A stretch of 64,000 nt of DNA from Gemmatimonadota bacterium (GCA_039592335.1 JBDHBX010000015.1:26777-90776), one strand, 5' to 3'. Positions 651-42,967 are shown, numbered from the stretch's first letter. Notes: generated by a model from the sequence alone, not told the origin. Numbers and translations: made by a program.

Positions 651-2210
651 CTACGAGTCTGCCTGAGGCGCCTCTCTACGTGGAGGATGCTGCAGGGCGT
701 CGAGCGCGGTCTCACGCACGTCCCGGTCGCGGTCGCGCACCAGAGCCTGGAGCATGTCCCGCGCGACCTTCCCGCCCGCCAGCGCCAGGCCCTCGGCCGC
801 CGCCCGGCGCGGGGCGGTGGAGCGTCGCACCGCGAATAACCCACCGGGCTGCACCGCCCGCGCCAGCACCTGGATGGCGGCCGGCGTGCCAATGCGGCCC
901 AGCGCCCGGTAGTACTCGCACAGCACGTCGAGGTCCTGCTCGTTCTCCGCGACCGAAACGAGCGGCATGACCAACGCACCCAAGCGATAGCCGCGCAACG
1001 CTCGGGCAACGGCGGTGCGCACCTCGGGATCCGGATCCCTCAGCACCGTGCGCAGATGAGTGATCGCGGCGGGCGACCCGATCTTGGCCAACGCCACCCC
1101 GGCAGCGTGCCTCACCCGGCGGTCCTCATGCTCCGCGGCCCCGGCCAGCGCCGGCACCGCCTCTGCCACCCCCAACTCCCCCACGAGGTCGGCCGCGTTT
1201 CGGACCACATACCATTCCGGGTGGCTGAGCATGGCTGCCACGACGTCGCCCCCGGACTCAATCTGGCGCAGTGCGTGGAGATACGCCCGCCGCTCCGCGA
1301 AGGTCGGCGCTTCCACCAGCAGGTCGATGAGCACCTGGGTGGCCCGACTGCCCACGCGCCGGACGATCCGCACGACATCCTCCGCAAAGATCTCATCGAA
1401 CAGATACCGCGCGACCTGCTTCACTAATCCCTGGTCGAGCACGCGCTGGAGCGTGATCCCGAACGCGCGCCGCGCGTCCTCGGTGATCGCGGCCTCCTCG
1501 GCATCCAGCAACGCCACCACCGCCTCGATGACTTGCTCGATCTCTTTCTGTTCCACCGCCCTCTTAATGCCCGCCTCGATCGGAGCCAGCGCGTCGACCA
1601 TTCCCGCACCACCCGGCCCGTCTCGCAGCTGGACGACGGCATTGGACACCGAGGTCGCCCGCAGCGGCATGGTGCGCAACATCTCGCTGAAGGTCGCCTC
1701 GCCCGACGTCGTCACGACTCCGGCTACGCCTACGGCGTCGTCCTGGGGAAGCACACCACTGACCTGCAGGGCTTCGGTGATGCGCACTTCGCGGCGCTCC
1801 CGCGCCGCCTCCCCCAGGTCAGTGGGAACGATGGTCACGCCGGAGATCTTGGCGTCACGCATCTGTTGCCCAAGCTCCGCCCCCAGTCGTGACGTGGCAG
1901 GGTCGGGCGCCAGCGCTCGCAGGAACAGCATCAGATCCAGCGCCGGGGCCCTGTGCCCGATGTGAAGCTCGGCGACTCCATGGACCTGCATCTGCTGGAC
2001 GAACAGCGCGATGAACGGCGTCTCGGTGGGAACCCAGAAGCCCTCGACGGTAACCCCCTCCGGCTCGAGACGGACGGTCGTGCTGCCCTTGCTGGCGAGC
2101 TCGGCGAGGCTCCGCAACGTCGCCTTGGTTTCCCGAACCGCGTCGGGATGGCGGCGCAGCAGGTTGAGCATACCGCCCAACAGCACGGCGCACCTGACTT
2201 CGTCACGCAC
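651..2210 (-). CDS. HEAT-repeat (PBS-lyase-like) protein
   Basis: 519-aa ORF. The C-terminal half carries HEAT-like units such as DRRVRHAAGVALAKIGSPAAITHLRTVLRDPDPEVRTAVARAL and DRDVRETALDAL. The N-terminal half is unassigned. Its stop lies 17 nt upstream of the kinase ATG. Confidence 0.75.
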   Translation of the reverse strand: MRDEVRCAVLLGGMLNLLRRHPDAVRETKATLRSLAELASKGSTTVRLEPEGVTVEGFWVPTETPFIALFVQQMQVHGVAELHIGHRAPALDLMLFLRALAPDPATSRLGAELGQQMRDAKISGVTIVPTDLGEAARERREVRITEALQVSGVLPQDDAVGVAGVVTTSGEATFSEMLRTMPLRATSVSNAVVQLRDGPGGAGMVDALAPIEAGIKRAVEQKEIEQVIEAVVALLDAEEAAITEDARRAFGITLQRVLDQGLVKQVARYLFDEIFAEDVVRIVRRVGSRATQVLIDLLVEAPTFAERRAYLHALRQIESGGDVVAAMLSHPEWYVVRNAADLVGELGVAEAVPALAGAAEHEDRRVRHAAGVALAKIGSPAAITHLRTVLRDPDPEVRTAVARALRGYRLGALVMPLVSVAENEQDLDVLCEYYRALGRIGTPAAIQVLARAVQPGGLFAVRRSTAPRRAAAEGLALAGGKVARDMLQALVRDRDRDVRETALDALQHPPRREAPQADS

Positions 2211-2433
2211 GGCTGGCAGCGGCAGACGGGGAAATCCCCGACGGTAACGTTGGGCGCATGGAACGCTACCCCCGGATGGGTACGGGTTGGTTGTCAGTCC
2301 GGCAGAGGCCGGATACCGCTAAGATACCCCTGGTCCCGGTCGCGGCAACGCGGGGGTGCCCCGTGGCGCCGGCCGGCTGGCGCAAACGCGTGCGCACCAT
2401 AGGTTTTGGAACCCTTCACCGACGACGAGCGCC

Positions 2434-2685
2434 ATGCGATCCACCCTCCGATTCGCGCTCCCCATCGCAGCGCCGCCACTCCTCGCCGCCCTCGTGCTGG
2501 CCTACTTCAGCAACCTCTCCAGTAGCATGACGCAGTATGGAACGGGTCCGGCTCCCGTCTTCTTCGGCGCCGGCTACGTCGAGGTCACCGACTGGTGGCG
2601 GCTCGCGTTGGTGGTGAGCGTCGTGAACGCCGTGGTGTGGCTGGGGATCGGCGGGATATGGTGGAAGGTGTTGGGGATGTGGTGA
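2434..2685 (+). pseudogene. C-terminal relic of a DASS/SLC13-type anion:sodium symporter
   Basis: Encodes ...LSSSMTQYGTGPAPVFFGAGYVEVTDWWRLALVVSVVNAVVWLGIGGIWWKVLGMW, the conserved extreme C-terminus of DASS carriers (2-oxoglutarate/malate translocator-like). Only about 225 nt separate it from the divergent gene at 2210, so roughly 400 codons are missing. Confidence 0.65.
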
Positions 2686-2773
2686 CCGCGGGCGGCGCGG
2701 TGAGCCACCTGGCGATTCTCCCGATGCGGGTGCAGATTGGCCGATCCTATGCTCTGGAGGAAGAGGGGGTGCG

Positions 2774-4234
2774 ATGAGGCCGGGTCTGGAGTTCTTGGGA
2801 ACGGAGCTGGTAGAGCGCATCGTCGCGGAGGCGCGGGACCTACTGCGCACCCTGGGTATCGAGATCAACAACCCGGGGCTCCTCTCCGTCCTCGCCGACC
2901 ACGGCGCCGAGGTCGATGCTTCGACGAAACGCGCCCGGCTCACCGACGGTATCATCGACAAGGCACTCGAGACCGCGCCGAGCGGCTTCCGGCTGTATGA
3001 CGTGCCCGGTACCGAGGCCCTCGACCTCTCCGGCAGGAACGTGCACTTCACACCGGGCTCGGCAGCCATCCGCATCCTGGATCACGACGAGCACCATGCA
3101 CGGACGCCGAACACGGCCGATTACATCCGGTACGCCAAGGTCGGCTCGCAGTTGGAGCATATCGCCTCCCAGAGCACAGCGCTCATTCCCGGCGATGTCC
3201 ATCCCAACATCTCCGATAGCTACCGGCTCTTCCTGAGCCTCCTGTTCTGCGACAAACCGGTGGTCACCGGGGCGTTCACCATCGACGCCTTCAACGTGAT
3301 GCGCGACCTGCAGCTCGCCGTGCGCGGGAGCGAGGAGGCACTGGCCGCCAGGCCGCTGGTGATCTTCTCCTGCTGTCCAACCGCACCGCTGCGGTGGAGC
3401 GACGTGACGTCGCAGAACGTGGTGGACTGCGCCCGGTATTCGATTCCGGTGGAGTACGTCTCCATGCCGCTGACCGGGTTCGTGTCGCCGGTTACCCTGG
3501 TCGGCACGCTGGTGCAGCACACGGCGGAAACACTGAGCGGCGTCGTCATCAGCCAGCTCACCAACCCGGGCACGCCTGCCCTGTACGGCGGCTCACCGGC
3601 TGCGTTCGACGTGCGCTACGAAACGACCCCGATGGGCGCGCCTGAAACGATGATGATCGATTGCGCCTACAACGAAATCGGCACCTATCTCGGGCTGCCG
3701 ACGCAGGCGTACATGGCGCTGAGCGACGCCAAGCTGCTCGACACGCAGAGCGGCATCGAGACGTCGATGGGTGCGACCCTCGCAGCACTCAGCGGGATCA
3801 ACAACGTGTCGGGTCCGGGGATGCTCGATTTCGAGAGCTGTCACAGCCTCGAGAAACTCGTGGTGGACAACGAGATCTGCGGCATGGCACTTAGGCTCGT
3901 GCAGGGCATCGAGCCCAAGGAGGACTTCCCCGCGCTGCCACGATTCGAGGAGCTGCTGAAGGAGAACCACCTCCTCATTTCGAAGCACACGCGCCGCTAC
4001 CTGCGCGAGGAGCACCACTTCCCCGGTCCGGTGATCGACCGGGCGAACCGCGCACGCTGGCAGGACGAGGGCGGCACGACGCTCGGCGCCCGCGCGCACA
4101 GCGAGGTCGAGAGGCTGCTCACCGAATACGAAGCCTCCTCTCTCGACCAACATGTCAGGGCACAGATCACCGAACTCATGGCCGCCGAGGCCCGACGCCA
4201 CGGCATGGACACCCTGCCGCACGAGGGCGCATGA
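2774..4234 (+). CDS. MttB-superfamily (trimethylamine methyltransferase-like) methyltransferase, non-pyrrolysine type
   Basis: Uninterrupted 486-aa ORF. Its size, its N-terminus (LGTELVERIVAEARDLLRTLGIEINNPG...) and its position next to a corrinoid protein fit the MttB family. There is no in-frame TAG. Confidence 0.75.
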   Translation: MRPGLEFLGTELVERIVAEARDLLRTLGIEINNPGLLSVLADHGAEVDASTKRARLTDGIIDKALETAPSGFRLYDVPGTEALDLSGRNVHFTPGSAAIRILDHDEHHARTPNTADYIRYAKVGSQLEHIASQSTALIPGDVHPNISDSYRLFLSLLFCDKPVVTGAFTIDAFNVMRDLQLAVRGSEEALAARPLVIFSCCPTAPLRWSDVTSQNVVDCARYSIPVEYVSMPLTGFVSPVTLVGTLVQHTAETLSGVVISQLTNPGTPALYGGSPAAFDVRYETTPMGAPETMMIDCAYNEIGTYLGLPTQAYMALSDAKLLDTQSGIETSMGATLAALSGINNVSGPGMLDFESCHSLEKLVVDNEICGMALRLVQGIEPKEDFPALPRFEELLKENHLLISKHTRRYLREEHHFPGPVIDRANRARWQDEGGTTLGARAHSEVERLLTEYEASSLDQHVRAQITELMAAEARRHGMDTLPHEGA

Positions 4235-4944
4235 CCGGCGTCGTGAGCTTCAGCGCGTCGGACGTGCACCCAGACCGGGAGATCGCCCTGGAGTACCAGG
4301 GTATTCCGCCAGGTCGGGCCGTGCCTCCGCACATCGAGCAACTCTACGACGCCGCGCTCGGACTGCTACTCAAGGCCGTCGAGCCGGTGGCCGTGGTCTC
4401 CGAGATCTCCAAGGACGACTTCGCCGTGGTGTTCGAAGGCGAGGGGAACAATGCACCGAGCACGCCGGTGGGCGACGTCTTTCCGCTCGCCAGCAACCTC
4501 TTCCTGTTCGCCGTGACGCTGGGCGAGCAGGTGAGCGACGTCGTCCGCCGCTGCTTCGAGACGAACGAGTTCGCAGCCGGGAGCATGGTGGATGCGGCCG
4601 CTTCAGTGGCGGCCGACACGGCGGCCGACGTGATCGAACGGCGCATCGCCGAAGAGCTGCGTGCCGACGGAGGAGCCACGGCGTACACGGGCGTCCTGCG
4701 CTACAGCCCGGGATACTGCGGCTGGCACGTCAGCGGGCAGCAGAAGCTGTTCGACTACCTGGGGCCCGGGAAGATCGGCGTCACCCTGGGAGCGAGCTAC
4801 CTGATGCAGCCGCTCAAGTCCGTGTCGGGTGTCGTGATCGCCGCGCCCAAGAAGGTCCACAGTTTTGCGCCCTCATATGACTTCTGCCGGCAGTGTGAGA
4901 CGCGCAGCTGCCGCGAGCGAATTCGCGCGCTGCTCGCCGGGTGA
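4231..4944 (+). CDS. MetH-type reactivation (AdoMet-binding activation) domain protein
   Basis: 237 aa. The stretch ...VLRYSPGYCGWHVSGQQKLFDYLGPGKIGVTLGASYLMQPLKSVSGVVI matches stand-alone 'vitamin B12-dependent methionine synthase activation domain' proteins. It has a C-terminal CRQCETRSC motif and an ATGA overlap with mttB-like gene. Confidence 0.6.
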   Translation: MTGVVSFSASDVHPDREIALEYQGIPPGRAVPPHIEQLYDAALGLLLKAVEPVAVVSEISKDDFAVVFEGEGNNAPSTPVGDVFPLASNLFLFAVTLGEQVSDVVRRCFETNEFAAGSMVDAAASVAADTAADVIERRIAEELRADGGATAYTGVLRYSPGYCGWHVSGQQKLFDYLGPGKIGVTLGASYLMQPLKSVSGVVIAAPKKVHSFAPSYDFCRQCETRSCRERIRALLAG

Positions 4945-4970
4945 GCGGTACGACGATGGGGAGGATGTGA

Positions 4971-5609
4971 ATGAACACGCTGGCCAAGATCGCCAACGGC
5001 GTCATCACCGGTGACGACGAGTTGGTCGGGAAGCTCACGAAACAGCTCATCGGCGAGAAGGCGGCGCCGGCGTCAATCCTGGACGACGGGCTGATCGCCG
5101 GCATGAACGTGGTCGGCGAGCGGTTCAAGAACCACGACATCTTCCTACCCGACGTGCTGCTGGCGGCCAAGGCGATGTACGCCGGCATGGACCAGCTCAA
5201 GCCGCTGCTCTTCGCAGAGGGAGTTCCCTCGATGGGCAAGGTCGTAATCGGTTCGGTGCGTGGGGACCTGCACGACATCGGCAAGAACCTGGTCGGCATC
5301 ATGCTGCAGGGCGCCGGGTTCGACGTGATCGACCTGGGGCGGGACGTCGCACCCGAGCAGATGATCGAGGCGGTGCAGCAGCACGACGCCACGGTGATCG
5401 GCATGTCGGCGTTGCTCACCACCACCATGCCGGTGATGGGGGAAGTCGTGGAGCGGATTCAGAAGGAAGGCCTCACGGGCACAGTGAAGACCATCGTGGG
5501 CGGCGCACCGCTAGACGCAGAGTTCGCGACGGAGATCGGAGCCGATGCGTACGGCTACGACGCCGCCAATGCGGTGGACCGCGTGAAGCAGCTGCTGGGT
5601 AAGGCCTGA
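4971..5609 (+). CDS. Corrinoid (cobalamin-binding) protein, cap plus Rossmann domain
   Basis: 212 aa with DLHDIGKNLV (DxHxxG), MSALLTTT (SxL) and IVGGAP, the classic lower-ligand His-on B12-binding motifs. Confidence 0.85.
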   Translation: MNTLAKIANGVITGDDELVGKLTKQLIGEKAAPASILDDGLIAGMNVVGERFKNHDIFLPDVLLAAKAMYAGMDQLKPLLFAEGVPSMGKVVIGSVRGDLHDIGKNLVGIMLQGAGFDVIDLGRDVAPEQMIEAVQQHDATVIGMSALLTTTMPVMGEVVERIQKEGLTGTVKTIVGGAPLDAEFATEIGADAYGYDAANAVDRVKQLLGKA

Positions 5610-5610
5610 C

Positions 5611-6498
5611 ATGCAGCCGTTCGCCGAGCGGCTCGTTTCGGGAAGGCCTCTCGTGTGCGACGGCGCCACCGGCACCATGCTGATCGAGCGCGGTCTCGAG
5701 CCGGGCCGCCCCCCCGAATCGATGACGCTCTCCCACTCGGACGTGCTCGAGGAGATCGCCCGGCTCTACGCCGAGGCGGGCGCGGATATTGTGGTGGCGA
5801 ACACGTTCGGCGGCTCGCCCCTGCGGCTCGCGCAGTACGAGTTGGACGGCAAGACCCGGGAGATCAACCGGGTGGCGCTCGAGGCAGTGCGGCGCGCCGG
5901 CGCGGACCGCGTGTACGTCGCGGCGTCGTGCGGGCCGAGCGGTGCCTTGCTCGAGCCCTATGGCGACACCGACTCCGGCACCGTCGCTGCCGGCTTCCGC
6001 GAGCAACTCGAGCATCTGTTCGCGGTCGGGCTGGACTGTCTGATCGTCGAGACCATGGTCGATCTCGCGGAGGCGAAGCTGGCGATACAGGCCGCCAAGG
6101 AGATCTCTCCGCACACGCCGGTACTGGCGACCATGACCTTCGACGCCACCCCCAGAGGGTTTTTCACCGTTATGGGTGTGAGCGTCGAGACGGCAGCGTC
6201 CGGGCTGCAGGAGGCCGGGGCCGACGCGGTGGGCTCCAACTGCGGCAACGGTAGCGAGAGCATGGTCGAGATCGCCCGCGCGTTCCGGGCGTGTACCGAC
6301 CTTCCCCTCATAGTCCAGCCCAACGCCGGCCTGCCCGAGGTCCGAGGCGGCATGACCGTCTACGGCGAGACCCCCGAGTTCATGGCCGCCAAGGCCGAGG
6401 AGCTACTCGATATCGGCGTTTCGGTCATCGGCGGCTGCTGCGGCACCACGCCGGAGCACATCAAGGCCGTGCGCGCGACGGTCGACGCCTCCGGCTGA
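5611..6498 (+). CDS. Homocysteine S-methyltransferase domain protein (MetH Hcy-module-like)
   Basis: 295 aa with DGATGTML, NTFGGSP, and GSNCG plus GGCCGTTPEHI (the zinc-ligand cysteine triad of Hcy-binding barrels). It starts 1 nt after the corrinoid gene stop. Confidence 0.8.
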   Translation: MQPFAERLVSGRPLVCDGATGTMLIERGLEPGRPPESMTLSHSDVLEEIARLYAEAGADIVVANTFGGSPLRLAQYELDGKTREINRVALEAVRRAGADRVYVAASCGPSGALLEPYGDTDSGTVAAGFREQLEHLFAVGLDCLIVETMVDLAEAKLAIQAAKEISPHTPVLATMTFDATPRGFFTVMGVSVETAASGLQEAGADAVGSNCGNGSESMVEIARAFRACTDLPLIVQPNAGLPEVRGGMTVYGETPEFMAAKAEELLDIGVSVIGGCCGTTPEHIKAVRATVDASG

Positions 6499-6651
6499 GC
6501 ACCCCGACCCGCGGCCCTTGCGGGATCGGGTCCCGCCGGTAGGATAGTTGCCCTTACCCCCTCCCAAGGAGTCACCCATCGCCGACTCACTTTCACCGCG
6601 CTTGTCCTCGCCCTGCTGACGCCCGTCGCGGCGCAGGCACAGGAGGAGCCA

Positions 6652-7005
6652 ATGGAGCCCGGCACGCTGGTCGTGTCCTACTGGAAGTGCGAGTGGGACG
6701 GGATCGCGACGCTCGTCCAGCGTTACGACTCGCTGTCCAATCCCATCAACCAGGAGCTGGTCAACGAGGGCATGCTGAACGCCGCCGGGATGGCCACGCA
6801 CGACTGGGCCGACGAGTGGAACGTGATCTACTGGTGGGTCGCCACCGACAAGGCGGCGTTCTTCGAGGCCCGCGCGGAGGCAAACCGCCGCTTCAACGAG
6901 CGGAATCCCGACCCCCCATCCGATCCCCCCTTCCTGGAGATCTGCGAGGAGCACAAGGACGGGATCTACAACTACGGGCCGCACACGACGCCGCCAGAGA
7001 TGTAG
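6652..7005 (+). CDS. Hypothetical, probably secreted protein; start codon unresolved
   Basis: 117 aa from the first ATG. The frame stays open for 51 more codons upstream and encodes a Sec-like signal peptide (HRRLTFTALVLALLTPVAAQAQEE). That stretch has no ATG, GTG or TTG. Confidence 0.5.
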   Translation: MEPGTLVVSYWKCEWDGIATLVQRYDSLSNPINQELVNEGMLNAAGMATHDWADEWNVIYWWVATDKAAFFEARAEANRRFNERNPDPPSDPPFLEICEEHKDGIYNYGPHTTPPEM

Positions 7006-7149
7006 CTGGCGCTCCGCGTCGCGCAGCGAGCGCTCGGCTCCGCGCCGGGCGCTCGCAGCTCCTGCGGGGCGTCGGCGACCCCGAAGAATACCCGAACAAG
7101 CGGTGCCTCCAGCGCGGTTCCGGCCGACTACCGCAGTAGGCTGTAAGGC

Positions 7150-7310
7150 TTTAGTTTTGTTGGTCTACATGGCAGAAAGACCCGTGCCGGAGGGAGACAT
7201 CCCACCGGCAGCCCGAACGCGGGGGCATTGCCGCGGAAGATGATGCGCGATCGGCTGGCTCGGCATAGCCGGACTCCGACGAACATCAGCGCACACTCAA
7301 GGAGTACGGC
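7150..7310 (+). promoter_or_regulatory. Long 5' leader of cspA paralog 1, conserved with the leader of paralog 2
   Basis: Blocks GGCAGCCC, AACGCGGGGGCA, TGATGCGCGATCGG, CCGGACTCCGACGA, CATCA and CAAGGAGTACGGCATG recur in the same order upstream of the second csp gene (30033-30180, minus strand). Confidence 0.5.
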
Positions 7311-7523
7311 ATGCGTACGACCGGAACCGTGAAGTGGTTCAACGATGCCAAGGGTTTTGGCTTCCTCACGCGTGACGACGGTGAGAAGGACTGCTTTGTC
7401 CACCACTCGGCCATTCAGGCCGAGGGCTTCAAGTCGCTGAAGGAAGGCGAGCGCGTGGAGTTCGAGGTAGTGCAGGGCGAGAAGGGCCCCGCGGCCCAGA
7501 ACGTAACCAAGCTCGAGGCGTAA
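7311..7523 (+). CDS. csp: Cold-shock protein, CspA family
   Basis: 70 aa: [36 protein letters not shown]... with RNP1 (KGFGF) and RNP2 (VHHS/FVH) motifs. Confidence 0.95.
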
Positions 7524-20058: not shown

Positions 20059-23000
20059 CTACCCCCTGGCCCGCGCCGCCGCCCGCCGGGCCTCGGGCGC
20101 ATCGGCCCCCAAATGAGCGGTGATCACCCTGAGCCCCTCGTCCAGGAACCACTGGGTTTCGGGCTCTCCCGAACGGCCCTGCGCCCGCAGCGCCGCCCCC
20201 CGAAGGCTCATTACCTCTCCGTGGCGCCAGTGCCCGGCGGGCAGCTCGGCCAGGTTCCGCTCGGCCTCGCGCAGCACCGCGTCGGCAGGCTCCGCCAGTC
20301 CCATTGTGAGGTACGCCTCGCCCAGGCACTGTAGCGTGTAGCCGATCCTGGGATGCGGCTCCGGCAGCTTCGCCCGCTCGGCGGCCAACACATCCCGCAG
20401 TAACGCGACGGCCTCGTCGGCCCTTCCCCGCCGCAGCAGCACCGCGGCCTGGTCACGCCGCACCTGCAGCACGTAGCGGTGGTTCTCGCGCAGCCGCTCC
20501 CCGGCAACGGCCTGGGCCTCATCGAGCAGACGCTCCGCCTCGGCGAGGCGTCCGCGGCGCAGCGCCACACCCGCCATTCGCTGCCGCGCGAGCATGCCGT
20601 AGATGCTCGCCGGTCCCGAGAGGCGCTGGTTCATGGCCACGGCAGAGTCCAGGAACACGCCCGCCCCGCGCAGTCGGCCAGTCTCCACCAATGGATCGGC
20701 CGAGCGAATCAGCGAGATGACGATCCCCGGGTGATCCCCGGCGTGACGCTCTCGCTTGGCCGCCAGCGCCGTGTCGAAGCGCGCCGACGCCTCGGCGAAG
20801 CGTCCCATTTCGAGCTCGATCGTGGCGAGCGCCTCCCGCAGCGTAGTGGAGGTCACATGCTCGGGTCCAAGTTTACCGTTCGCCCGCTCGAGCCCGGCCC
20901 TCAGGATCGGCTCCGCCGCGCCGTAACGGCCGAGCCCCGAGAGCAGCAGCCCCCACTGCGCCATCGCCTCGATCACGTCGGGGTGATCGTCCTCGTACAG
21001 CGCGACACGCATGTCGTAACCCCCCTTGACCAGCGGCTCGGCCGAGGCGTACTGCTCGCGCAGCCGACGGATCATGCCCACGTTGAGGAGCGCCGATGCC
21101 GCCAAGGGATGCGGCCGCGCAGCGTCGTACCCCTCGAGCGTGGACACGAACAGCGCCTCCGCCTCGTCGAACGCGCCCTGGTCGTGGTAGGTCGCTGCTA
21201 GCCCCAACAGCGTCGCCGCCACGGTGACCTCGCTGCCGGGCAGCGCGCGCTGGCCGTCGACCGCGGCCTGGAACAACCCCGCCGCATCATCGTAGTGACC
21301 CGCGCTTCGCAGCTCGAACGCCAGGCTCGCCTGCGTCGCCGCCAACAGCGAGTCCGGCCCGGCGAGTGCGTCCTCCCGAATTGCGATCGCCCGGCGGAAT
21401 TGCTCAATCGCTTCCTCTCGCCTGCCCTCCGCGGCGAGGAGCTCCCCCAGCCGGCTCGCGCTCTCCGAGACCTCGAGGCTTGCGGTGCCGTAGTACTCCT
21501 CGCGCAGCACGAGGGAGCGCAGCACCGTTTCCTCCGCCCGCTCGAGCAGGCCGAGGTGCTCGTACACCCGTGCCACCTCGAGCAGCATTGCCGACTGCAC
21601 GTCGGGCTGGTCGGCTAGCTCGTCCATGACGCGCTGGATGCCCCGATCGAGGATCTGCCGCGCGCTGATCGAGTCGCCCAGCGCCTCGTTGGGATCGGTG
21701 AGACGGAAGACCTCGACCATCATTCCCGCGACGCGCGCCGCACGGTCGCGCTGCACCGAGGCGATGGCCGCCTGCTCGGCAGCCTCGCGCGCCTGCCAGG
21801 TGGTCGCCACGAGACCGCCGCCGAGGGAGAACACGATCGCAGCGGCCGCGCCCATCATCACCCGATGCCGCGCCACAAACTTGCGGGTGCGGTACAGCGC
21901 CGAGTCGCCCCGCGCGTCCACCGGGTCGCCATCGAGGTGCCGTTCCACGTCGCTCGCGATCTGCTCGGCCGAGGCGTAGCGCCGCGCCGGCTCCTTGCGC
22001 AGCGCCATGCACACGATGTTGTCCACGTCGCCGCGCAGCCGGCGGCGGAGGTAATTCGCGCGCGTGCGATACGCGAACCGGTGCGCCTCGCTTTCCCCTC
22101 CGCTGCCGCCCATGAGGTGTGCGCGGGGGTCGCCGTCGAGCTGCGCCTGCCCATCGCGCTTCGTGGTGCCACCCGTGGGCTGCGCTAGCTTGGGCGGAAC
22201 CACCGCCGCGCTCGGCCTCGGCGCCTCCTCTTCCAGGATGATCCGCTCCCAGTCGTACGGCGCGCGACTGGCCAGCTGGAACGGAACGCGCCCCGTGAGC
22301 AGCTCGAACAGAACCACGCCAAGCCCGTACACATCGGTGGCCGTGGTGATCAGATCGCCCTGTACCTGCTCGGGGCTCGCGTACTCCGGGGTCATGAGCC
22401 GGAGGCCAGTACGGGTCAGCGGCGCGGAGTGACCCAGGGCGGCGGGGTCGAGCATCTTGGCGATCCCGAAATCCAGCAGCTTCACAACCCCCTCGTCGGT
22501 CACGAGGATGTTGGAGGGCTTGAGGTCGCGGTGGACTACAAGATTGCGGTGGGCGTAGTGCACCGCGCGGGCCACGGTGCAGAACAGGCGCAGGCGGTCG
22601 TCGACGTTGAGCCGATGCTTGTCGCAGTACTCGTCGATCGGCAGGCCGTCCACATGCTCCATCACGAGGTACTGGCGACCGTCCTCCGTGATGCCACCGT
22701 CCAACAGGCGCGCGACGTGCGGGTGATCGAGCGAGGCGAGGATGCGCCGCTCGGCCTCGAAGCGGCGGTGCAGCTCGTCCATCCCGGGACCACCTGGGAT
22801 CACCTTCACCGCGACCTTGCGGCGGAACGCGGCATCGTCGGACTCGGCCAGGTACACCACGCCCATGCCGCCGCGCCCCACTTCCGAGATGATGCAGTAC
22901 CGCCCGATGCGCTCGCCCACCGACGACTCGCGCACCGCGTTGGCCGCCGCGGCGGTGGGATCGCTCTCCAGCACCCCCTCGGCGCGGTCATGGGCCGCGA

Positions 23001-23136
23001 GCAACGCCCCGACTTCGGCGCGCAGCTCCGCATCGTCCGCGCAGAAGCGGTCGAGCAGCTTGGCGCGATCGCTCACCTCGCGCTCGAGCGCCTCCTCGAA
23101 GAGGGCTTCGACCTGCCGGCGGCGCTCAGGCTTCAT
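20059..23136 (-). CDS. Ser/Thr protein kinase with TM segment and long TPR region
   Basis: Start ATG 23136 forms an ATGA overlap with the sigma gene stop. Motifs: GRGGMGVVYLA, VAVKVI, HRDLKPSNILV, DFGIAK, TPEYASPEQ. About 600 aa of TPR-like repeats follow. Confidence 0.85.
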   Translation of the reverse strand: MKPERRRQVEALFEEALEREVSDRAKLLDRFCADDAELRAEVGALLAAHDRAEGVLESDPTAAAANAVRESSVGERIGRYCIISEVGRGGMGVVYLAESDDAAFRRKVAVKVIPGGPGMDELHRRFEAERRILASLDHPHVARLLDGGITEDGRQYLVMEHVDGLPIDEYCDKHRLNVDDRLRLFCTVARAVHYAHRNLVVHRDLKPSNILVTDEGVVKLLDFGIAKMLDPAALGHSAPLTRTGLRLMTPEYASPEQVQGDLITTATDVYGLGVVLFELLTGRVPFQLASRAPYDWERIILEEEAPRPSAAVVPPKLAQPTGGTTKRDGQAQLDGDPRAHLMGGSGGESEAHRFAYRTRANYLRRRLRGDVDNIVCMALRKEPARRYASAEQIASDVERHLDGDPVDARGDSALYRTRKFVARHRVMMGAAAAIVFSLGGGLVATTWQAREAAEQAAIASVQRDRAARVAGMMVEVFRLTDPNEALGDSISARQILDRGIQRVMDELADQPDVQSAMLLEVARVYEHLGLLERAEETVLRSLVLREEYYGTASLEVSESASRLGELLAAEGRREEAIEQFRRAIAIREDALAGPDSLLAATQASLAFELRSAGHYDDAAGLFQAAVDGQRALPGSEVTVAATLLGLAATYHDQGAFDEAEALFVSTLEGYDAARPHPLAASALLNVGMIRRLREQYASAEPLVKGGYDMRVALYEDDHPDVIEAMAQWGLLLSGLGRYGAAEPILRAGLERANGKLGPEHVTSTTLREALATIELEMGRFAEASARFDTALAAKRERHAGDHPGIVISLIRSADPLVETGRLRGAGVFLDSAVAMNQRLSGPASIYGMLARQRMAGVALRRGRLAEAERLLDEAQAVAGERLRENHRYVLQVRRDQAAVLLRRGRADEAVALLRDVLAAERAKLPEPHPRIGYTLQCLGEAYLTMGLAEPADAVLREAERNLAELPAGHWRHGEVMSLRGAALRAQGRSGEPETQWFLDEGLRVITAHLGADAPEARRAAARARG

Positions 23137-23720
23137 GCCTCGGGGGGTGCGCCTTCGGGATAGAGCGTCTTGTAGAGCCAGGCGCGGGCTTTCACCCAGT
23201 CGCGGCGGACCGTGCGGTCGGTGACGCCCAGGACCTCCGCGATCTCCTTCTCCTCCATACCGCCGAAGAACCGGTACTCCACTACCTGGCGCTGCCGGGG
23301 ATCCAATTCCTCGAGCGCGGCATCGAGCGCCAGCATCTCGTCGGGCTTGAACTCCAGGGCGTCGTCGCCCTCGCCCAGGGTGGTGCGCACCCATTCCCCT
23401 TCCCGCTTGAGGGCCTTCTTGCGGCGGGCGTGATCCACCAGGACCTGTCGCATGGCGCGGGACGCGATGGCAAGGAAGTGTGCCCGGTCGGCGGCGGCCG
23501 CCGCTCCGCCACCCGCGAGCTTGAGATAGGCCTCGTGCACCAGCTCCGTGGGACGCAGGGTGTGACCCGCGCGCTCCACGCCCAGCCTGCGACGGGCCAC
23601 ATGGCGTAGCTCGTCGTAGACCAGGGGCATGAGCTGGTCGAGGGCTTGGGAGTCACCGGCACGGGCGGCGTCGAGCAGCCGCGTCACGTCACCGGGAGGC
23701 CCGGCTTCTCCCGCTTGCAT
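23133..23720 (-). CDS. ECF sigma factor of the kinase-associated type (TIGR02999-like)
   Basis: DVTRLLDAARAGDSQALDQLMPLVYDELRHVARRRL...HTLRPTELVHEAYLKL...HFLAIASRAMRQVLVDHARRKKALKR, and region 4 FFGGMEEKEIAEVLGVTDRTVRRDWVKARAWL. Confidence 0.85.
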   Translation of the reverse strand: MQAGEAGPPGDVTRLLDAARAGDSQALDQLMPLVYDELRHVARRRLGVERAGHTLRPTELVHEAYLKLAGGGAAAAADRAHFLAIASRAMRQVLVDHARRKKALKREGEWVRTTLGEGDDALEFKPDEMLALDAALEELDPRQRQVVEYRFFGGMEEKEIAEVLGVTDRTVRRDWVKARAWLYKTLYPEGAPPEA

Positions 23721-27928: not shown

Positions 27929-29716
27929 TTATACGTCCCTCGCCTCCCGCTTCCCCTCCAAGCGGTCACCGATCTCCTCGCCTACCTTGCGCGCCGCTTC
28001 CAGATCGACCGTCAGCTCGTCGAGCGTGGCGGCGCCGGCGCGCAGGCGCAGCAGATCGAGCCGCAGCGTCTCGAGCGCGGCCACCGCCGTGGCGAGGCGG
28101 GCGGCGGCATCGGGGTCGTCACCCCGCTCACGCAGGCCCAGCGCGTCGGCCTCGAGCCGCGCAGCTAACGCCGGGACGTCGCCCAGCCGCCGCCGCTCCT
28201 CCTCAGGCAACCCCTCAAATAGGTCCTCCAACGCCCGACCCAGCGCGACCTCGGTGCGCTCGCCCACCGTCGGAAGCGGCTCCACCCGCGCCTCGAGCCC
28301 CACACTGCCTAACCGGAAGATCCCGCGACCCAGCCGTCCGTGCAGCAGCTTCCCGAACAGCTTCGCGCCACCGAGTCGCTCCCACAGTCGTCGCGCCGTG
28401 ATGAGAGGGGCCCCAATGGTGACGGCGGTGCCGACGGTGACGGCCAGGTCGGCGTTCCCCAACATGCCCCAGATGCCGAGGGCGGTTGCGCCCGCACCGA
28501 GCCCCGCGGTGAGCCACGTCCCCACACCGCTCGGTCGCGTGGGTTCCTCCTCCTCAGTGGCCCTGCGCTCCTCGAGGGTGAGCGCCGCCCGCAGCGCACG
28601 ATGGTCGTAGCCCTCCAGCAGCAGATCACGCGCCATCCCGACGAGCCGGCCGACCCGTGCGCCGGAGAGCCCGGTGAGCAGCACTATCGCGATGATCTCC
28701 AATGCGCTGACGATCCCGAGCCAGTTACCCTCGATCAGCTTGACGATCTCGAGCGCGAGCAGCGCCCCTGCCAGGCCCGCCAGGTAGCCGCCCGCCTCCG
28801 AGCCCACGACGTACGCCTCGCGCGCGAACCGCTCGAGCGGCGCCGGCACGCGGACGAGGGCCCCGCGCGCCGCGGCGATCTCGTGCGCCAGCTCTTCCGC
28901 CGAGCCGAAGCGGTCGGCGGGATCCTTCACCAAGCAGCGGTCGATCGCGGCGGCGAAGCGCCGCGGCAGTCGCGGCGCGAGCGAGGCAAGGGGGGGCGCC
29001 GGCTCCGCGGCATGCTTACCCAAGAGGCCGACGACGGTCGACGCCTCGAATGGCGGCCGGCCGGTCGCCGCGAAGAATCCCGTGGCGCCGAGCGAGTACA
29101 CGTCGCTGCGGGCGTCGACCGGCTCTCCCGCTGCCTGCTCGGGGCTCATGTACTGCGGCGTGCCCACCACCGATCCCGCGCCGGGGGTATCGCCAGCGCT
29201 AGCCACATGCGCGATCCCGAAATCCGTCACTAGCGCGCGACCGCCGTCGTGCTCGAGCATCACGTTGTCAGGCTTCACGTCGCGGTGCACCACGCCGCGG
29301 CCGTGCGCGTGCCCCAGCGCCCAACCGACCTCCTGGACCAGGCGCATGACCTCGCTCGCCGGCAGCGGGCCACCGCGCCGCACGCGCTGGCCGAGAGTCT
29401 CCCCGTCCACCAAGCTCATCACGAAGAAGACGAGGCCGTCGGCTTCCTCGACCGAGTGGATCGGCACGATGTTGGGGTGGGCAAGCCCAGCCGCCATGCG
29501 CGCCTCCTGCAGGAAGCGTTGGCGCAGGGGCGGGACGGCGGCGAGCTCGAACGGCAGCAGCTTGATAGCCACTAGGCGATCGAGCGCCACGTCGCGTGCC
29601 AGGAACACCACGCCCATCCCGCCACGACCCAGTTCACGATCGAGCGAGAAGCGGCCCCGCACCGCCTGCTGCAGTGCAAGGAACTCGGGGTTGGGTGCGG
29701 TCGGGTCGCGGCTCAT
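27929..29716 (-). CDS. Ser/Thr protein kinase with membrane-spanning and coiled-coil C-terminal region
   Basis: Motifs: GRGGMGVVFLARD, VAIKLL, HRDVKPDNVML, VTDFGIA, GTPQYMSPEQ. Several hydrophobic segments follow the kinase domain. Confidence 0.85.
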   Translation of the reverse strand: MSRDPTAPNPEFLALQQAVRGRFSLDRELGRGGMGVVFLARDVALDRLVAIKLLPFELAAVPPLRQRFLQEARMAAGLAHPNIVPIHSVEEADGLVFFVMSLVDGETLGQRVRRGGPLPASEVMRLVQEVGWALGHAHGRGVVHRDVKPDNVMLEHDGGRALVTDFGIAHVASAGDTPGAGSVVGTPQYMSPEQAAGEPVDARSDVYSLGATGFFAATGRPPFEASTVVGLLGKHAAEPAPPLASLAPRLPRRFAAAIDRCLVKDPADRFGSAEELAHEIAAARGALVRVPAPLERFAREAYVVGSEAGGYLAGLAGALLALEIVKLIEGNWLGIVSALEIIAIVLLTGLSGARVGRLVGMARDLLLEGYDHRALRAALTLEERRATEEEEPTRPSGVGTWLTAGLGAGATALGIWGMLGNADLAVTVGTAVTIGAPLITARRLWERLGGAKLFGKLLHGRLGRGIFRLGSVGLEARVEPLPTVGERTEVALGRALEDLFEGLPEEERRRLGDVPALAARLEADALGLRERGDDPDAAARLATAVAALETLRLDLLRLRAGAATLDELTVDLEAARKVGEEIGDRLEGKREARDV

Positions 29717-30318: not shown

Positions 30319-32883
30319 CTAGTCCTTCGGCCGCACGAACTCGCGGAACGCCGGATGATCCCACAGGGGCTCGAGGTCAGGGTCTCGATGCAACGCTAGG
30401 GTGACTGTTCGGCCCGCAGCATAGGCCTCCCGCAACAGCACCATAGCGCGCTCCGGCTCCCCGAGCAGCGACGCCACGCAGGCCTGCCAGTACGGCTCCC
30501 GCCCGAAGTCGTACCTATGGGCGAGCTGCGCGAGCCCGCTACTCAACCTGAGCGCCGCTTCCCGGTCGCCGCGCCGCGCCGCCAGCGCGGCGAGGTAGCC
30601 CGGGTAGTTAGGATCCCCCGGGAACTCCTCGGCCAGGTCCTCGAACACCTCCTCCGCATCATCCCACTGCTCCGCCAGGTAGTGCGCGTTCCCCAACATG
30701 AACCGGGGAAAGCGGCCCGCCGCCTCTTCCGTAGGTCGCGACCGGTACCACGCCACGGCCCGCTCGGCGGCCCGCAGCGACGCGTCGCGATGACCATGCG
30801 CGCGCAGTTCGGCGCTGGCGTTCAGCATAACGCCGCCCGCTGTCCACTCGGGCTGGGCCGGGTAGTCGAGGCTCTGCTGGAGACGCTCCTCGACCTCGGC
30901 CACGCGGCCCAGCGCTGCGAGCGCTCGCACCTCATGTTCGAGCACACCCAGAAAGGTCGGATACTCGTCGCGTGCCTCGCGCGCTGCGCGTAGCTCCCGG
31001 CGATGGTCCCCCAGCATATGATGCGCGGCCGTGAGCATGTCCCACGATATCTGTACGAGCCCGTCCCAGCCCCGCGTCCGCAGCGCCGGTACGTACCACC
31101 CACTGGCATCCTCGAGCACGTCGAGAGTCTCCTGGGGGCGATTCACCCACAGCGCCTGCATCGCGTTGTCGAGTGGCGTCTCCGGCATCTGCCGAGCGGC
31201 CTCCAGCGCGCCCATCCGATCACCGGCGAACGCAGCCAGGTGCAGGTCCAGCCTCGCCTCGGCGAACCGGGTGAGGCCCGCACGGCGCTGATGCGCCAGG
31301 AGACTGAGCGTGTCGGCCAAGGCGACATCTCCGACCCGAGCAGCCGAGTTGCTCGCCAGGATGAGCGCTGCCGTGAACGTGGTGTCGATCTCGGCCGCCT
31401 CGAGAAACAGGCTCAACGCTACGGGAACGTCCTGTCCCCGGCCGGCGTCGAACGCCCGGTTGTAGATGTCCTGCCCCTCCACAAACGCGCGATACGCCTC
31501 CAACGGCGGCGGCTGCTGCGACGGGCTCTGGTAGTCCGCGATACGTCCATCCAGCGTAGCGGCCAGGGCGTTCACGACGCGGCGGCGCAGCTCCTCCACC
31601 GCCCCGAGCGGCTCCACCGCCGTCCCGCGCACCGGCGCGATACTCAGGAGGACGCGCTCGCGCCGCGCGTCAGTGACGTTGGCCTCGAACTGCAGAGAGT
31701 CACCGAAGCGGTAGAACGCCCCGGTGACGACCGTCCCCGACGCCGTCGCCTCCCCTAATTGCCTCGCTGTCGCGCCGCCGCCCCACATAATGGCCTCCGG
31801 CGGCACCACCTCGATGACCTCTACTTCGAGCAAACCGCGCGTGATCCAGTCGCTCGCCAGCCGCCCCACGGCATCCAACGTCGAGTCGTCCGTCCGGTTC
31901 TCCAGCGCGGCGACCAGCACGCGTCGCCGGTTCAACTCCCCGCCCCCGCCAGGGAGCAGCAGCGCGACGGCTACCACTATCGCGACCACGGCAGCGAGGG
32001 CCGCCGCAATCAATCCGCGGCGTCGGGCAGGCCGCCCCACCTGCACCGCCTCCGGCGCCACCAGCGCCCTGGCGAACTCGCCCGCCGTGGCGAAGCGCTG
32101 CGAGCGCTCCTTGACCAGGGAGCGATGAATCACTGCGGCCACGGGCTCGGGGATCTCGGGTCGCAACTCGGTGAGGCGGCGCGGCTCGTTGTGGAGATGC
32201 TGGTTCAGGACCTTCCGCGCACTGTCACCCGTGAACGGCGGCCGCCCAGTGAGCAGCTCGTAGAGCACACAGCCCAGACTGTAGACGTCGCTCCGCCCGT
32301 CGATGTCGTCCTCACCGGCCACCTGCTCCGGGCTCATGTAGTCGGGGGTGCCCGGCGTCAGCCCGGTTCCCGTCAGCCGGTCGTCACCCTCATTCTGCGA
32401 CGCACGTGCAATACCGAAGTCGGCCAGCAGCGGCAGCCCCGCCTCGAGCAGAATGTTCTCCGGCTTGATGTCGCGGTGGATAACGCCACGCACGTGCGCA
32501 TACTCCAGCGCGTCGGCGATCTCCGCTCCGAGCCGCAGGCCCTCTTCGACCGGCAATCGCTTGTCCCGGCGCACGCGGCCGCGCAGCGACTCGCCCTCCA
32601 CGCACGGCATGACGTAGTACAGCTGCCCATCCGCGTCACCGGAGTCGTACAGCTGCAGGATGTGAGGATGGCGGAACTGCGCGGTGATCTCGATCTCGCG
32701 CAAGAACCGTTTGGGGCCGAGCGCCGTGGCGTACTCCGGCCGCAGGACCTTGATCGCCACCTTGCGGTGATGCTTGAGGTCTTCGGCCCGATACACCGTG
32801 CCCATCGCGCCGCCGCCGATGCGCTCCTCGATTCGGTAGCGGTCGGCGAGGCTGACCTGCAGGCGGTTCAACTCATCCGTCAA
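30319..32883 (-). CDS. Ser/Thr protein kinase with TM segment and TPR-like C-terminal domain
   Basis: Motifs: MTDELNRLQVSLADRYRIEERIGGGAMGTVYRAED, VAIKVL, HRDIKPENILL, LADFGIA, GTPDYMSPEQ. Confidence 0.85.
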   Translation of the reverse strand: MTDELNRLQVSLADRYRIEERIGGGAMGTVYRAEDLKHHRKVAIKVLRPEYATALGPKRFLREIEITAQFRHPHILQLYDSGDADGQLYYVMPCVEGESLRGRVRRDKRLPVEEGLRLGAEIADALEYAHVRGVIHRDIKPENILLEAGLPLLADFGIARASQNEGDDRLTGTGLTPGTPDYMSPEQVAGEDDIDGRSDVYSLGCVLYELLTGRPPFTGDSARKVLNQHLHNEPRRLTELRPEIPEPVAAVIHRSLVKERSQRFATAGEFARALVAPEAVQVGRPARRRGLIAAALAAVVAIVVAVALLLPGGGGELNRRRVLVAALENRTDDSTLDAVGRLASDWITRGLLEVEVIEVVPPEAIMWGGGATARQLGEATASGTVVTGAFYRFGDSLQFEANVTDARRERVLLSIAPVRGTAVEPLGAVEELRRRVVNALAATLDGRIADYQSPSQQPPPLEAYRAFVEGQDIYNRAFDAGRGQDVPVALSLFLEAAEIDTTFTAALILASNSAARVGDVALADTLSLLAHQRRAGLTRFAEARLDLHLAAFAGDRMGALEAARQMPETPLDNAMQALWVNRPQETLDVLEDASGWYVPALRTRGWDGLVQISWDMLTAAHHMLGDHRRELRAAREARDEYPTFLGVLEHEVRALAALGRVAEVEERLQQSLDYPAQPEWTAGGVMLNASAELRAHGHRDASLRAAERAVAWYRSRPTEEAAGRFPRFMLGNAHYLAEQWDDAEEVFEDLAEEFPGDPNYPGYLAALAARRGDREAALRLSSGLAQLAHRYDFGREPYWQACVASLLGEPERAMVLLREAYAAGRTVTLALHRDPDLEPLWDHPAFREFVRPKD

Positions 32884-42667: not shown

Positions 42668-42967
42668 CTACACTCCTCTCGCCCGTAAGCGCCGGATGCG
42701 CTGCGGGCCTCTCTTACTAGAGTCGCGATGAAACCACCGAGAAGAAGTGACTGGTGTCACCCGCAACGTGGTGTGGGCCACGTCACGTTGTTCACGTCAA
42801 GCACCGTTGCCGTCGTTGACCATTACCCAAGATTGGGCTGCACGCACGGCTCGAGGAACCAGAGGCCGTGGCTGCGGGCACTGGCTCCAACGGCTGCCCC
42901 TCCCGCCCTGTCTGGCCCCCGCGACCCCCGCCTCATACCTTGCACCAGACCCAACCGAGATCGCTCA

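Follow-up and report, generated by a model that had tools for sequence, protein, structure and literature searches.

A probable cobalamin-dependent methionine synthase assembled from separate genes around a pyrrolysine-free MttB homologue

How is a methyl group passed to homocysteine (Hcy) by a gene cluster in which MetH-type modules are encoded separately and an MttB homologue stands in the place of the folate barrel? The question is raised by four packed genes on one strand of a 64,000-nucleotide stretch of DNA from a Gemmatimonadota bacterium (GCA_039592335.1 JBDHBX010000015.1:26777-90776), hereafter the window. The genes encode an MttB-superfamily methyltransferase, a stand-alone MetH-type activation protein, a corrinoid protein and an Hcy S-methyltransferase (Table 1). 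An initial annotation, made from the DNA alone, had proposed a folate-independent transfer of methyl groups from a glycine-betaine-like donor through the corrinoid protein to Hcy, with MetH-style reductive remethylation. That reading is right in outline, wrong on the likely donor, and not original. The cassette is most likely a cobalamin-dependent methionine synthase that is complete in itself and has the layout of a three-component methylotrophic methyltransferase system. The methyl group would flow from the donor to the MttB homologue, then to the Co(I)-corrinoid protein and on to Hcy, giving methionine, with repair by the activation protein; a probability of roughly 0.6 was assigned to this overall flow.

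Cassette proteins were searched against Pfam (gathering scores) and NCBIfam (model cutoffs), and all four scored above Pfam gathering. The Hcy S-methyltransferase matched S-methyl_trans (PF02574) with 218.7 bits over profile positions 1-283 of 283. Its best match among solved structures was the Hcy domain of Thermotoga maritima MetH (1q7m, 174 bits), against 55 bits for BHMT and 45 bits for MmuM. The zinc cysteines C211, C275 and C276, with the GSNCG and GGCCG motifs already recognised in the initial annotation, are conserved in 55 orthologues, as are the DGA.GT and ETM motifs. By these scores the module is a MetH-type Hcy domain and not a pterin barrel, for which the test was negative. The MetH Hcy domain is a methylcobalamin acceptor, and the closer relationship to it than to the direct transferases BHMT and MmuM counts for corrinoid-fed methionine synthesis.

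The same scores bear on the alternative that the Hcy S-methyltransferase needs no partner and transfers methyl groups directly and without cobalamin from betaine, dimethylsulphoniopropionate (DMSP) or S-methylmethionine, in the manner of BHMT, Bmt or MmuM, and is merely co-located with an MttB-corrinoid demethylase. In vitro, Bmt of Phaeobacter inhibens, which is a split-MetH Hcy module, used DMSP and betaine directly for methionine formation (PMC12366255), and the NCBIfam BHMT model PRK07534 reaches 208 bits with the window protein. However, this score is under the model cutoff of 338, the MetH Hcy domain is far closer than either BHMT or MmuM, and the spacing to the corrinoid gene (1 nt in the window, median about 11 nt in 51 loci) argues for coupled function. 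Direct transfer by this protein alone is judged highly improbable.

The corrinoid protein matched both B12-binding_2 (PF02607, 74.8 bits) and B12-binding (PF02310, 96.9 bits). Against solved structures it scored 197 bits with 1y80, 148 bits with MttC and 102 bits with the B12 domain of MetH. It has the helical cap, the Rossmann domain and the DxHxxG, SxL and GG motifs of the methylotrophic corrinoid proteins (MttC/MtgC type). In the window these motifs read DLHDIG (within DLHDIGKN; His-on), SALLTTT and GG (within GGAP), the first two as initially annotated, and they are conserved in 72 orthologues. The best NCBIfam models were MtgC_2 (203 bits) and pyl_corrinoid (189.5 bits); both scores are under the equivalog cutoffs of these named models, which places the protein outside every named subfamily. 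Corrinoid proteins of the MttC/MtgC type dock onto MttB-family barrels (PMC9842639).

The product of the second gene had been taken for a stand-alone MetH-type reactivation domain, and this held in both profile and fold comparisons. Met_synt_B12 (PF02965) matched with 41.2 bits against a cutoff of 25, over profile positions 125-251 only. An AlphaFold2 model (predicted local distance difference test, pLDDT, 92.7) was searched with Foldseek, and the top match was TM0269 of T. maritima (1j6r; E = 3e-12, probability 1.0), with a TM-score of 0.80 target-normalised and 0.67 query-normalised. The next matches were MetH activation domains (1msk, 6bm5, 8ssd and 2o2k), E. coli, T. thermophilus and human MetH being among the activation domains. 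The predicted model thus confirms a MetH-type activation fold. An SPGYCGW motif is invariant in the orthologues. It overlaps the sequence R157-YSP-G161-Y162, which has the form RxxxGY and of which the Gly and Tyr are invariant. RxxxGY is reportedly the S-adenosylmethionine (AdoMet, SAM) binding motif of E. coli MetH, credited to Dixon et al. 1996. By analogy with MetH, the protein would depend on AdoMet.

Four cysteines of the activation protein are invariant in 75 orthologues: C163, directly after the GY of the putative AdoMet motif, and C219, C222 and C227, which form a C-terminal CX2CX4C. The C-terminal motif is present in 120/120 database homologues and in divergent cassettes. In the alignment TM0269 has Gly opposite C163 and ends before CX2CX4C. 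The four cysteines may form a metal site, either Fe-S or zinc, and this candidate site is described here for the first time.

The first gene belongs to the MttB superfamily, as initially annotated. MTTB (PF06253) matched with 253.6 bits against a cutoff of 25, residues 3-471 aligning with profile positions 29-494 of 500. The nearest solved chains are MttB of Methanosarcina barkeri (7xcl, 203 bits) and then MtgB (9yce/2qne, 173 bits), and from sequence homology to 7xcl and 9yce a TIM-barrel fold with a C-terminal dimerisation extension may be expected. An AlphaFold2 model made with 25 orthologues, each at least 72% identical, had a mean pLDDT of 61, with residues 272-429 below 50; prediction failed on the C-terminal half of the barrel despite the existing homologous crystal structures.

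An in-frame amber codon is absent from the gene, as had been noted from the DNA. In the HMMER alignment to 7xcl, pyrrolysine (Pyl) 334 of M. barkeri MttB aligns with Leu316 (codon CTG), which does not vary among 25 orthologues. In the window protein S96-A97 and S346 stand at the positions of G110-T111 and Y364, the residues that activate Pyl in true MttB, and M249 is kept as M231. The MttB equivalog TIGR02369 scored 359.7 bits, under its cutoff of 525. Identity as a true trimethylamine (TMA) methyltransferase MttB was ruled out by Leu316, the replaced activating residues and the TIGR02369 score. Pyl-type TMA chemistry is impossible for this protein, which is presumed to be a methyl-donor:corrinoid methyltransferase (MT1).

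The Rfam model PYLIS_3 ('pyrrolysine insertion sequence mttB') matches window positions 3719-3818 (+) over its full length, starting from the Leu316 codon, with 24.9 bits against a gathering score of 38. In two relatives it scores above gathering (48.5 bits in L044, 8948-9045; 40.3 bits in L001, 10946-11045). Because the open reading frames (ORFs) are uninterrupted, these matches probably reflect coding homology to a model built from mttB coding sequence. In this clade they would be a false-positive trap for Pyl annotation.

The identity of the donor was approached through the glycine betaine site of MtgB, which has been defined by mutagenesis and a ligand-bound structure (Picking et al., 2026, PMC13080624): Y97 and F356 make cation-pi contacts, and R312 and H348 bind the carboxylate. 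R312 is conserved across all characterised superfamily enzymes acting on acidic quaternary amines (PMC13080624). In pairwise HMMER and 104-sequence MAFFT alignments, the tetrad Y97/R312/H348/F356 is replaced by S96/Q311/gap/E354 in the window protein. All of 25 orthologues have Q311 and E354, and 24/25 have S96. The alignment is of high confidence at three of the four positions, and there is no basic residue near the fourth. Among the cluster representatives that make up the 104-sequence alignment, an MtgB-like Y/R/Y pattern is still visible at about 29% identity (P0381), so the tetrad comparison has discriminating power. The same alignment places the window protein in a large clade with a pocket signature of its own, new here, of S96, Q/H311, Y313, D/E352, F353 and E354.

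Loss of the betaine-binding tetrad disfavours the glycine-betaine-like donor of the initial annotation. Glycine betaine and other carboxylated quaternary amines are, to judge from these residues, very probably not the donor. Identity as an MtgB glycine betaine:corrinoid methyltransferase was rejected, all four betaine-binding residues being gone from the window protein. The acidic pocket suggests, as a guess, a cationic and non-carboxylated substrate. The best guess for the donor is a non-carboxylated methylammonium compound (TMA or dimethylamine (DMA), choline-type) or another small methyl compound. The surroundings of the cassette gave no donor clue: no transporter, regulator or dimethylglycine, sarcosine or DMA enzyme recurs among the best 25 of 136 Pfam families found in 117 nearest flanking ORFs.

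The pocket also bears on the alternative that the MttB barrel binds an endogenous donor such as 5-methyl-tetrahydrofolate, in which case the cassette would be a housekeeping split MetH in which a non-homologous TIM barrel has taken over from the folate barrel. The pocket retains neither the pyrrolysine nor the quaternary-amine residues, no transporter is linked, and MttB is more conserved across phyla than its partners (median identity 73% against 50-65%). Some metagenome-assembled genomes (MAGs) of Desulfobacterota, Spirochaetota and Zixibacteria have been reported with mttB and without metH (PMC12484752). However, the Candidatus Electryoneota MAGs that carry the cassette also carry full MetH (PMC9324843), beside which the cassette would be superfluous. 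In sister clades this type of MttB occurs together with MtaA/URO-D-type acceptors, a methylotroph-like layout. We know of no member of the MttB superfamily that binds folate. An endogenous donor of this kind is considered quite improbable.

For joint function of the four proteins, gene linkage is the strong evidence. Relatives of the window MttB homologue were collected by scanning GTDB species genomes, one genome per species, which yielded 590 relatives. The best 80 of these are 68-84% identical to the window protein and all come from MAGs, spread over at least 12 mostly uncultured phyla with Gemmatimonadota closest. The taxa among these 80 are Gemmatimonadota, Phycisphaerae/Planctomycetota, Zixibacteria, Ignavibacteria, WOR-3, Stahlbacteria, Cloacimonadota, Fermentibacteria, Marinimicrobia, Eisenbacteria, TA06 and Krumholzibacteriia. 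Their source environments are soils, sediments, lakes, digesters and the ocean. No cultured carrier was found; all matches and cluster members come from metagenomes or MAGs. Loci with enough downstream sequence were treated as informative (n = 61), and in 51 of these, which cover the taxa listed above, the order MttB-activation-corrinoid-Hcy was found, tightly spaced, with median approximate gaps of 9, 37 and 11 nt between successive genes. The other informative loci held MttB and corrinoid genes only (4), MttB-corrinoid-Hcy (2), MttB-activation-corrinoid (2) or MttB and activation genes only (2). Median identity to the window was 73% for MttB, 50% for the activation protein, 65% for the corrinoid protein and 61% for the Hcy module. 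Such an arrangement is far beyond chance.

The partners also stay together when their order changes. Hcy-activation-MttB was found in L086 (47% MttB identity), corrinoid-Hcy-MttB in L092 and L093 (63% and 56%), and MttB-activation-Hcy-x-corrinoid(-)-URO-D in L094 (P0391; 47%), which is flanked by SusC/SusD-type genes. The association thus holds to 47% MttB identity in four different gene orders, and linkage that outlasts rearrangement strongly favours a shared function. When the locus ORFs were clustered all against all, no other shared neighbours emerged. In the Pfam scan of flanking ORFs none of the best 25 of 136 families occurred in more than three loci, and these 25 included no pterin methyltransferase, MTHFR, RamA, betaine transporter or dimethylglycine/sarcosine enzyme.

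Sister-clade MttB genes of L090 and L091 (P0252) and of L094 (46-47% identity) adjoin URO-D/MtaA-type methyltransferases. The order in L091 is corrinoid-MttB-nitroreductase-URO-D, in an archaeal-looking context with Trm56; in L094 the URO-D gene lies beside a complete Hcy-linked cassette. From this pairing it appears that MttB and the corrinoid protein form a constant core with an exchangeable acceptor module, which suggests that one such pair can feed different acceptors.

A related system has been characterised. Genetics in Ruegeria pomeroyi have joined the MttB-family MtgB, the corrinoid protein MtgC, the pterin module MtgD and the Hcy module MtgE into one cobalamin hub, in which reactivation is assigned to RamA and DUF1638 (Mausz et al., 2025, PNAS, PMC12478193). 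The MtgBCDE systems of R. pomeroyi, P. inhibens and Sinorhizobium meliloti resemble the cassette in that the MttB-family MT1, the corrinoid protein and the Hcy S-methyltransferase are separate proteins; in those systems they share one cobalamin hub that makes methionine. The split MetH of Price et al. 2018 is said to be the counterpart of MtgBCDE. Analogues of MtgB, MtgC and MtgE are present in the window, whereas neither the cluster nor its flanks contain MtgD, RamA or DUF1638. Five differences separate the two systems. The pterin module MtgD is essential in Ruegeria and no such module is linked to the cassette; RamA and DUF1638 there contrast with a MetH/TM0269-type activation protein with its Cys4 motif here; MtgB is assigned to glycine betaine, whereas the window MttB clade has no betaine tetrad; MtgC is reported to be CmuA-related, whereas the window corrinoid protein is closest to 1Y80 and MttC; and genes that are scattered in Ruegeria form a tight operon in the window.

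The cassette might nevertheless work as an MtgBCDE-like hub, in which an unlinked pterin (tetrahydrofolate, THF) methyltransferase also gives methyl groups to the corrinoid protein or takes them from it. It would then not be folate-independent: the main flux would run from the donor to methyl-tetrahydrofolate (CH3-THF), as catabolism, or from CH3-THF to methionine, with direct transfer from donor to Hcy as one branch. The genes mtgB, mtgC, mtgD and mtgE are scattered in R. pomeroyi, where MtgC serves both reactions (PMC12478193). Canonical MetH beside the cassette in the same MAGs indicates that folate one-carbon metabolism is present there (PMC9324843), and the URO-D-type second methyltransferase adjoining the L094 cassette suggests that one corrinoid protein may serve several acceptors. 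Against such a hub, no pterin-binding gene was found among the shared locus neighbours, the best 25 of 136 flank families (117 ORFs) or the scanned window ORFs of at least 235 amino acids. Across four gene orders it is the Hcy module that is the consistently linked acceptor, and the flank surveys show no genes for further catabolism of a demethylated product. A hub with an unlinked folate branch is considered unlikely. Canonical or split MetH was itself ruled out, the PF00809 pterin barrel being absent from the cassette, from the scanned window ORFs of at least 235 amino acids, from the shared locus neighbours and from the listed flank families. The statement of the initial annotation that neither a pterin methyltransferase nor RamA is encoded with the cassette holds in the cluster, in these window ORFs and, as to recurrent genes, in the flanks. 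Folate independence itself follows only from that absence in the cluster, and the pterin module of Ruegeria is unlinked, so that part of the proposal is unproven.

Direct, corrinoid-fed methionine synthesis is thus preferred, by the following mechanism. The MttB-clade MT1 would move a methyl group from a small methylated donor to the Co(I) corrinoid of the 212-residue carrier. The MetH-type Hcy module (MT2) would activate Hcy on zinc and accept the methyl group from CH3-Co(III), forming methionine. When the cofactor is occasionally oxidised to Co(II), it would be restored by the TM0269-like activation protein, by reductive methylation with AdoMet if the analogy with MetH holds. Electrons may enter through the four invariant cysteines. 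Module identities, motifs, gene linkage and the missing betaine residues are observations, whereas flow direction, donor class, AdoMet dependence, electron entry and the metal site are inferred. In terms of homology the cassette is a chimera, in which Thermotoga-like MetH-type Hcy and activation modules are joined to an MT1/carrier pair of the methylamine-methyltransferase type.

Several observations weigh against this mechanism. The Hcy gene, the activation gene or both are missing beside MttB and corrinoid genes in 10/61 informative loci, and an unlinked pterin methyltransferase could share the corrinoid protein, as MtgD does in Ruegeria. A riboswitch that would tie the operon to methionine regulation (SAM, B12 or methionine-linked) was not found. 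MetH-style remethylation, as initially proposed, agrees with the linked MetH-type activation protein, but the Arg of RxxxGY, on which AdoMet dependence partly leans, is present in 59/75 orthologues only. The position of H348 lies in a lower-confidence alignment stretch, and the AlphaFold2 model of the MttB homologue is too poor for a three-dimensional view of the pocket, so that pocket mapping rests on sequence alignments. No biochemical or genetic study of this MttB clade was found in the literature.

A more specific joint reading was also formulated. The window MttB homologue would represent a Pyl-independent clade for a donor class new to the superfamily (protonated TMA or DMA, a choline-type non-carboxylated amine, or an endogenous methyl carrier), held by Q/H311, D/E352 and E354. 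The cassette would be a truly folate-independent B12 methionine synthase, the main or only one in many uncultured FCB-group and Planctomycetota lineages without MetH, and would be repaired by a new Fe-S form of the MetH activation domain. Taken as a whole, this reading is regarded as tentative and rather doubtful.

The cluster itself has been reported before. Williams et al. (2022, Environ Microbiol, PMC9324843) found the same four genes in Candidatus Electryoneota MAGs, noted their presence in diverse bacteria, and proposed corrinoid-dependent methionine synthesis with the donor left unnamed. The four components are the same, and the Electryoneota MttB clade likewise stands apart from MtgB and nearer to MttB. 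Unlike the present analysis, that report is a single in-silico paragraph on other phyla with no residue-level analysis; the window adds a Gemmatimonadota-like instance. The claim of the initial annotation that the route is uncharacterised biochemically stands insofar as no biochemical study was found, but the idea is not new (PMC9324843) and the related MtgBCDE system has been characterised genetically (PMC12478193).

Other characterised systems share parts of the cassette. Among solved structures, T. maritima MetH (TM0268, 1Q7M) and the stand-alone TM0269 (1J6R) come closest to the Hcy and activation modules, and in both systems activation is supplied in trans. In Thermotoga MetH, however, the Hcy, folate and B12 modules are fused and CH3-THF is the donor, whereas the window modules are separate and MttB replaces the folate barrel; the window activation protein has both C163 and the CX2CX4C tail, and TM0269 neither. 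MtgB/MtgC/MtgA of Desulfitobacterium hafniense and MtpB, MtcB, MtyB and MthB of Eubacterium limosum also combine a non-pyrrolysine MttB-superfamily MT1 with a corrinoid protein of the same family. In these systems the acceptor is THF, reached through a pterin methyltransferase, reactivation is by RamA, and acidic quaternary amines are bound by the conserved R312, where the window clade has an invariant Gln. MttB/MttC of M. barkeri (7XCL, 7XCN) provides the best-scoring solved MT1 homologue, the counterpart M249 of M231, and a corrinoid protein of the same type. It differs at Pyl334, G110-T111 and Y364, and its acceptor is coenzyme M, via MtbA.

If the proposed flow is true, methyl groups of an environmental or endogenous compound enter the methionine/SAM cycle directly by way of B12, which would amount to a large unrecognised cobalamin demand and a new methyl entry point. 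The cassette is widespread in uncultured bacteria, as already noted (PMC9324843). Its MttB genes are routinely annotated as 'trimethylamine methyltransferase' and serve as marker genes for the use of TMA or betaine. For mercury methylation in MAGs of Desulfobacterota, Spirochaetota and Zixibacteria, MttB has been put forward as the source of the methyl group (PMC12484752). Four Zixibacteria MAG loci (L044, L064, L077 and L081) carry the Hcy-linked non-Pyl cassette, so MttB-based inferences on mercury methylation or TMA may be wrong for this clade.

Table 1. Positions of the cassette genes and of the codon homologous to the pyrrolysine codon (window coordinates)
Feature	Position	Strand	Product length	Pfam match
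MttB-superfamily methyltransferase gene (MT1)	2774-4234	+	486 aa	MTTB
Codon 316 of the MttB homologue (CTG, Leu), at the homologous position of the UAG/pyrrolysine codon of true MttB	3719-3721	+		
Stand-alone MetH-type activation (reactivation) gene	4231-4944	+	237 aa	Met_synt_B12
Corrinoid (cobalamin-binding) protein gene	4971-5609	+	212 aa	B12-binding_2 + B12-binding
Homocysteine (Hcy) S-methyltransferase gene (MT2)	5611-6498	+	295 aa	S-methyl_trans

The spacing of the four genes, a 4-nt ATGA overlap (4231-4234) followed by gaps of 26 nt and 1 nt, agreed exactly with the coordinates of the initial annotation. The GC content of the cassette (0.65-0.69) is like that of its surroundings. No SAM, B12 or other riboswitch or leader was detected in window positions 2100-7400 (E up to 1) or in eight related loci (gathering score). 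A consensus scan found no promoter-like sites, and terminator-like sites were no more frequent than in shuffled controls.

Upstream of the cassette, in the region 2174-2815, the ORF at 2356-2685 (109 aa) is the tail of a DASS transporter and covers only profile positions 377-472 of 472, in agreement with the decayed transporter described initially. Compared with the intact 470-aa gene of a 94%-identical relative (L002), the window gene lacks an internal stretch of about 1.1 kb (junction near 2455-2468) and keeps about 16 N-terminal and about 98 C-terminal codons. The gene is annotated in the same truncated state on contigs of the source population itself. Only in the closest relatives (L002-L005) does an intact DASS gene accompany the cassette; being confined to these and deleted in the window, it is not a conserved cassette partner.

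Downstream, an ORF of 117 aa at 6652-7005 (+; GC at third codon positions 0.94, a strong coding signal) lies between the Hcy gene and a cold-shock gene and has no Pfam or NCBIfam match. The spacer between these two genes is 812 nt in the window and 215 nt in L002, which puts the ORF inside a roughly 600-nt insertion found only in the lineage of the window.

Outside the cassette region, 20 further window ORFs of at least 235 aa were scanned. They encode Ser/Thr kinases, TPR or HEAT proteins, peptidases, a UPF0182 protein and a two-component pair, and none is a MetH, MetE, pterin methyltransferase, MTHFR or RamA. The 64 kb hold five genes for Ser/Thr protein kinases (20059-23394, 27929-29716, 30319-32883, 42728-44914 and 47456-52117). 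One of the window kinases, of 1553 aa, combines the kinase domain with a double zinc ribbon, an adenylate/guanylate cyclase, an AAA_16 ATPase and TPR repeats. The gene at 56651-58384 (-) codes for a response-regulator receiver joined to a pyridine-nucleotide-disulphide oxidoreductase and lies immediately downstream of one for an HATPase_c (histidine-kinase-type ATPase) protein at 58400-59968 (-).

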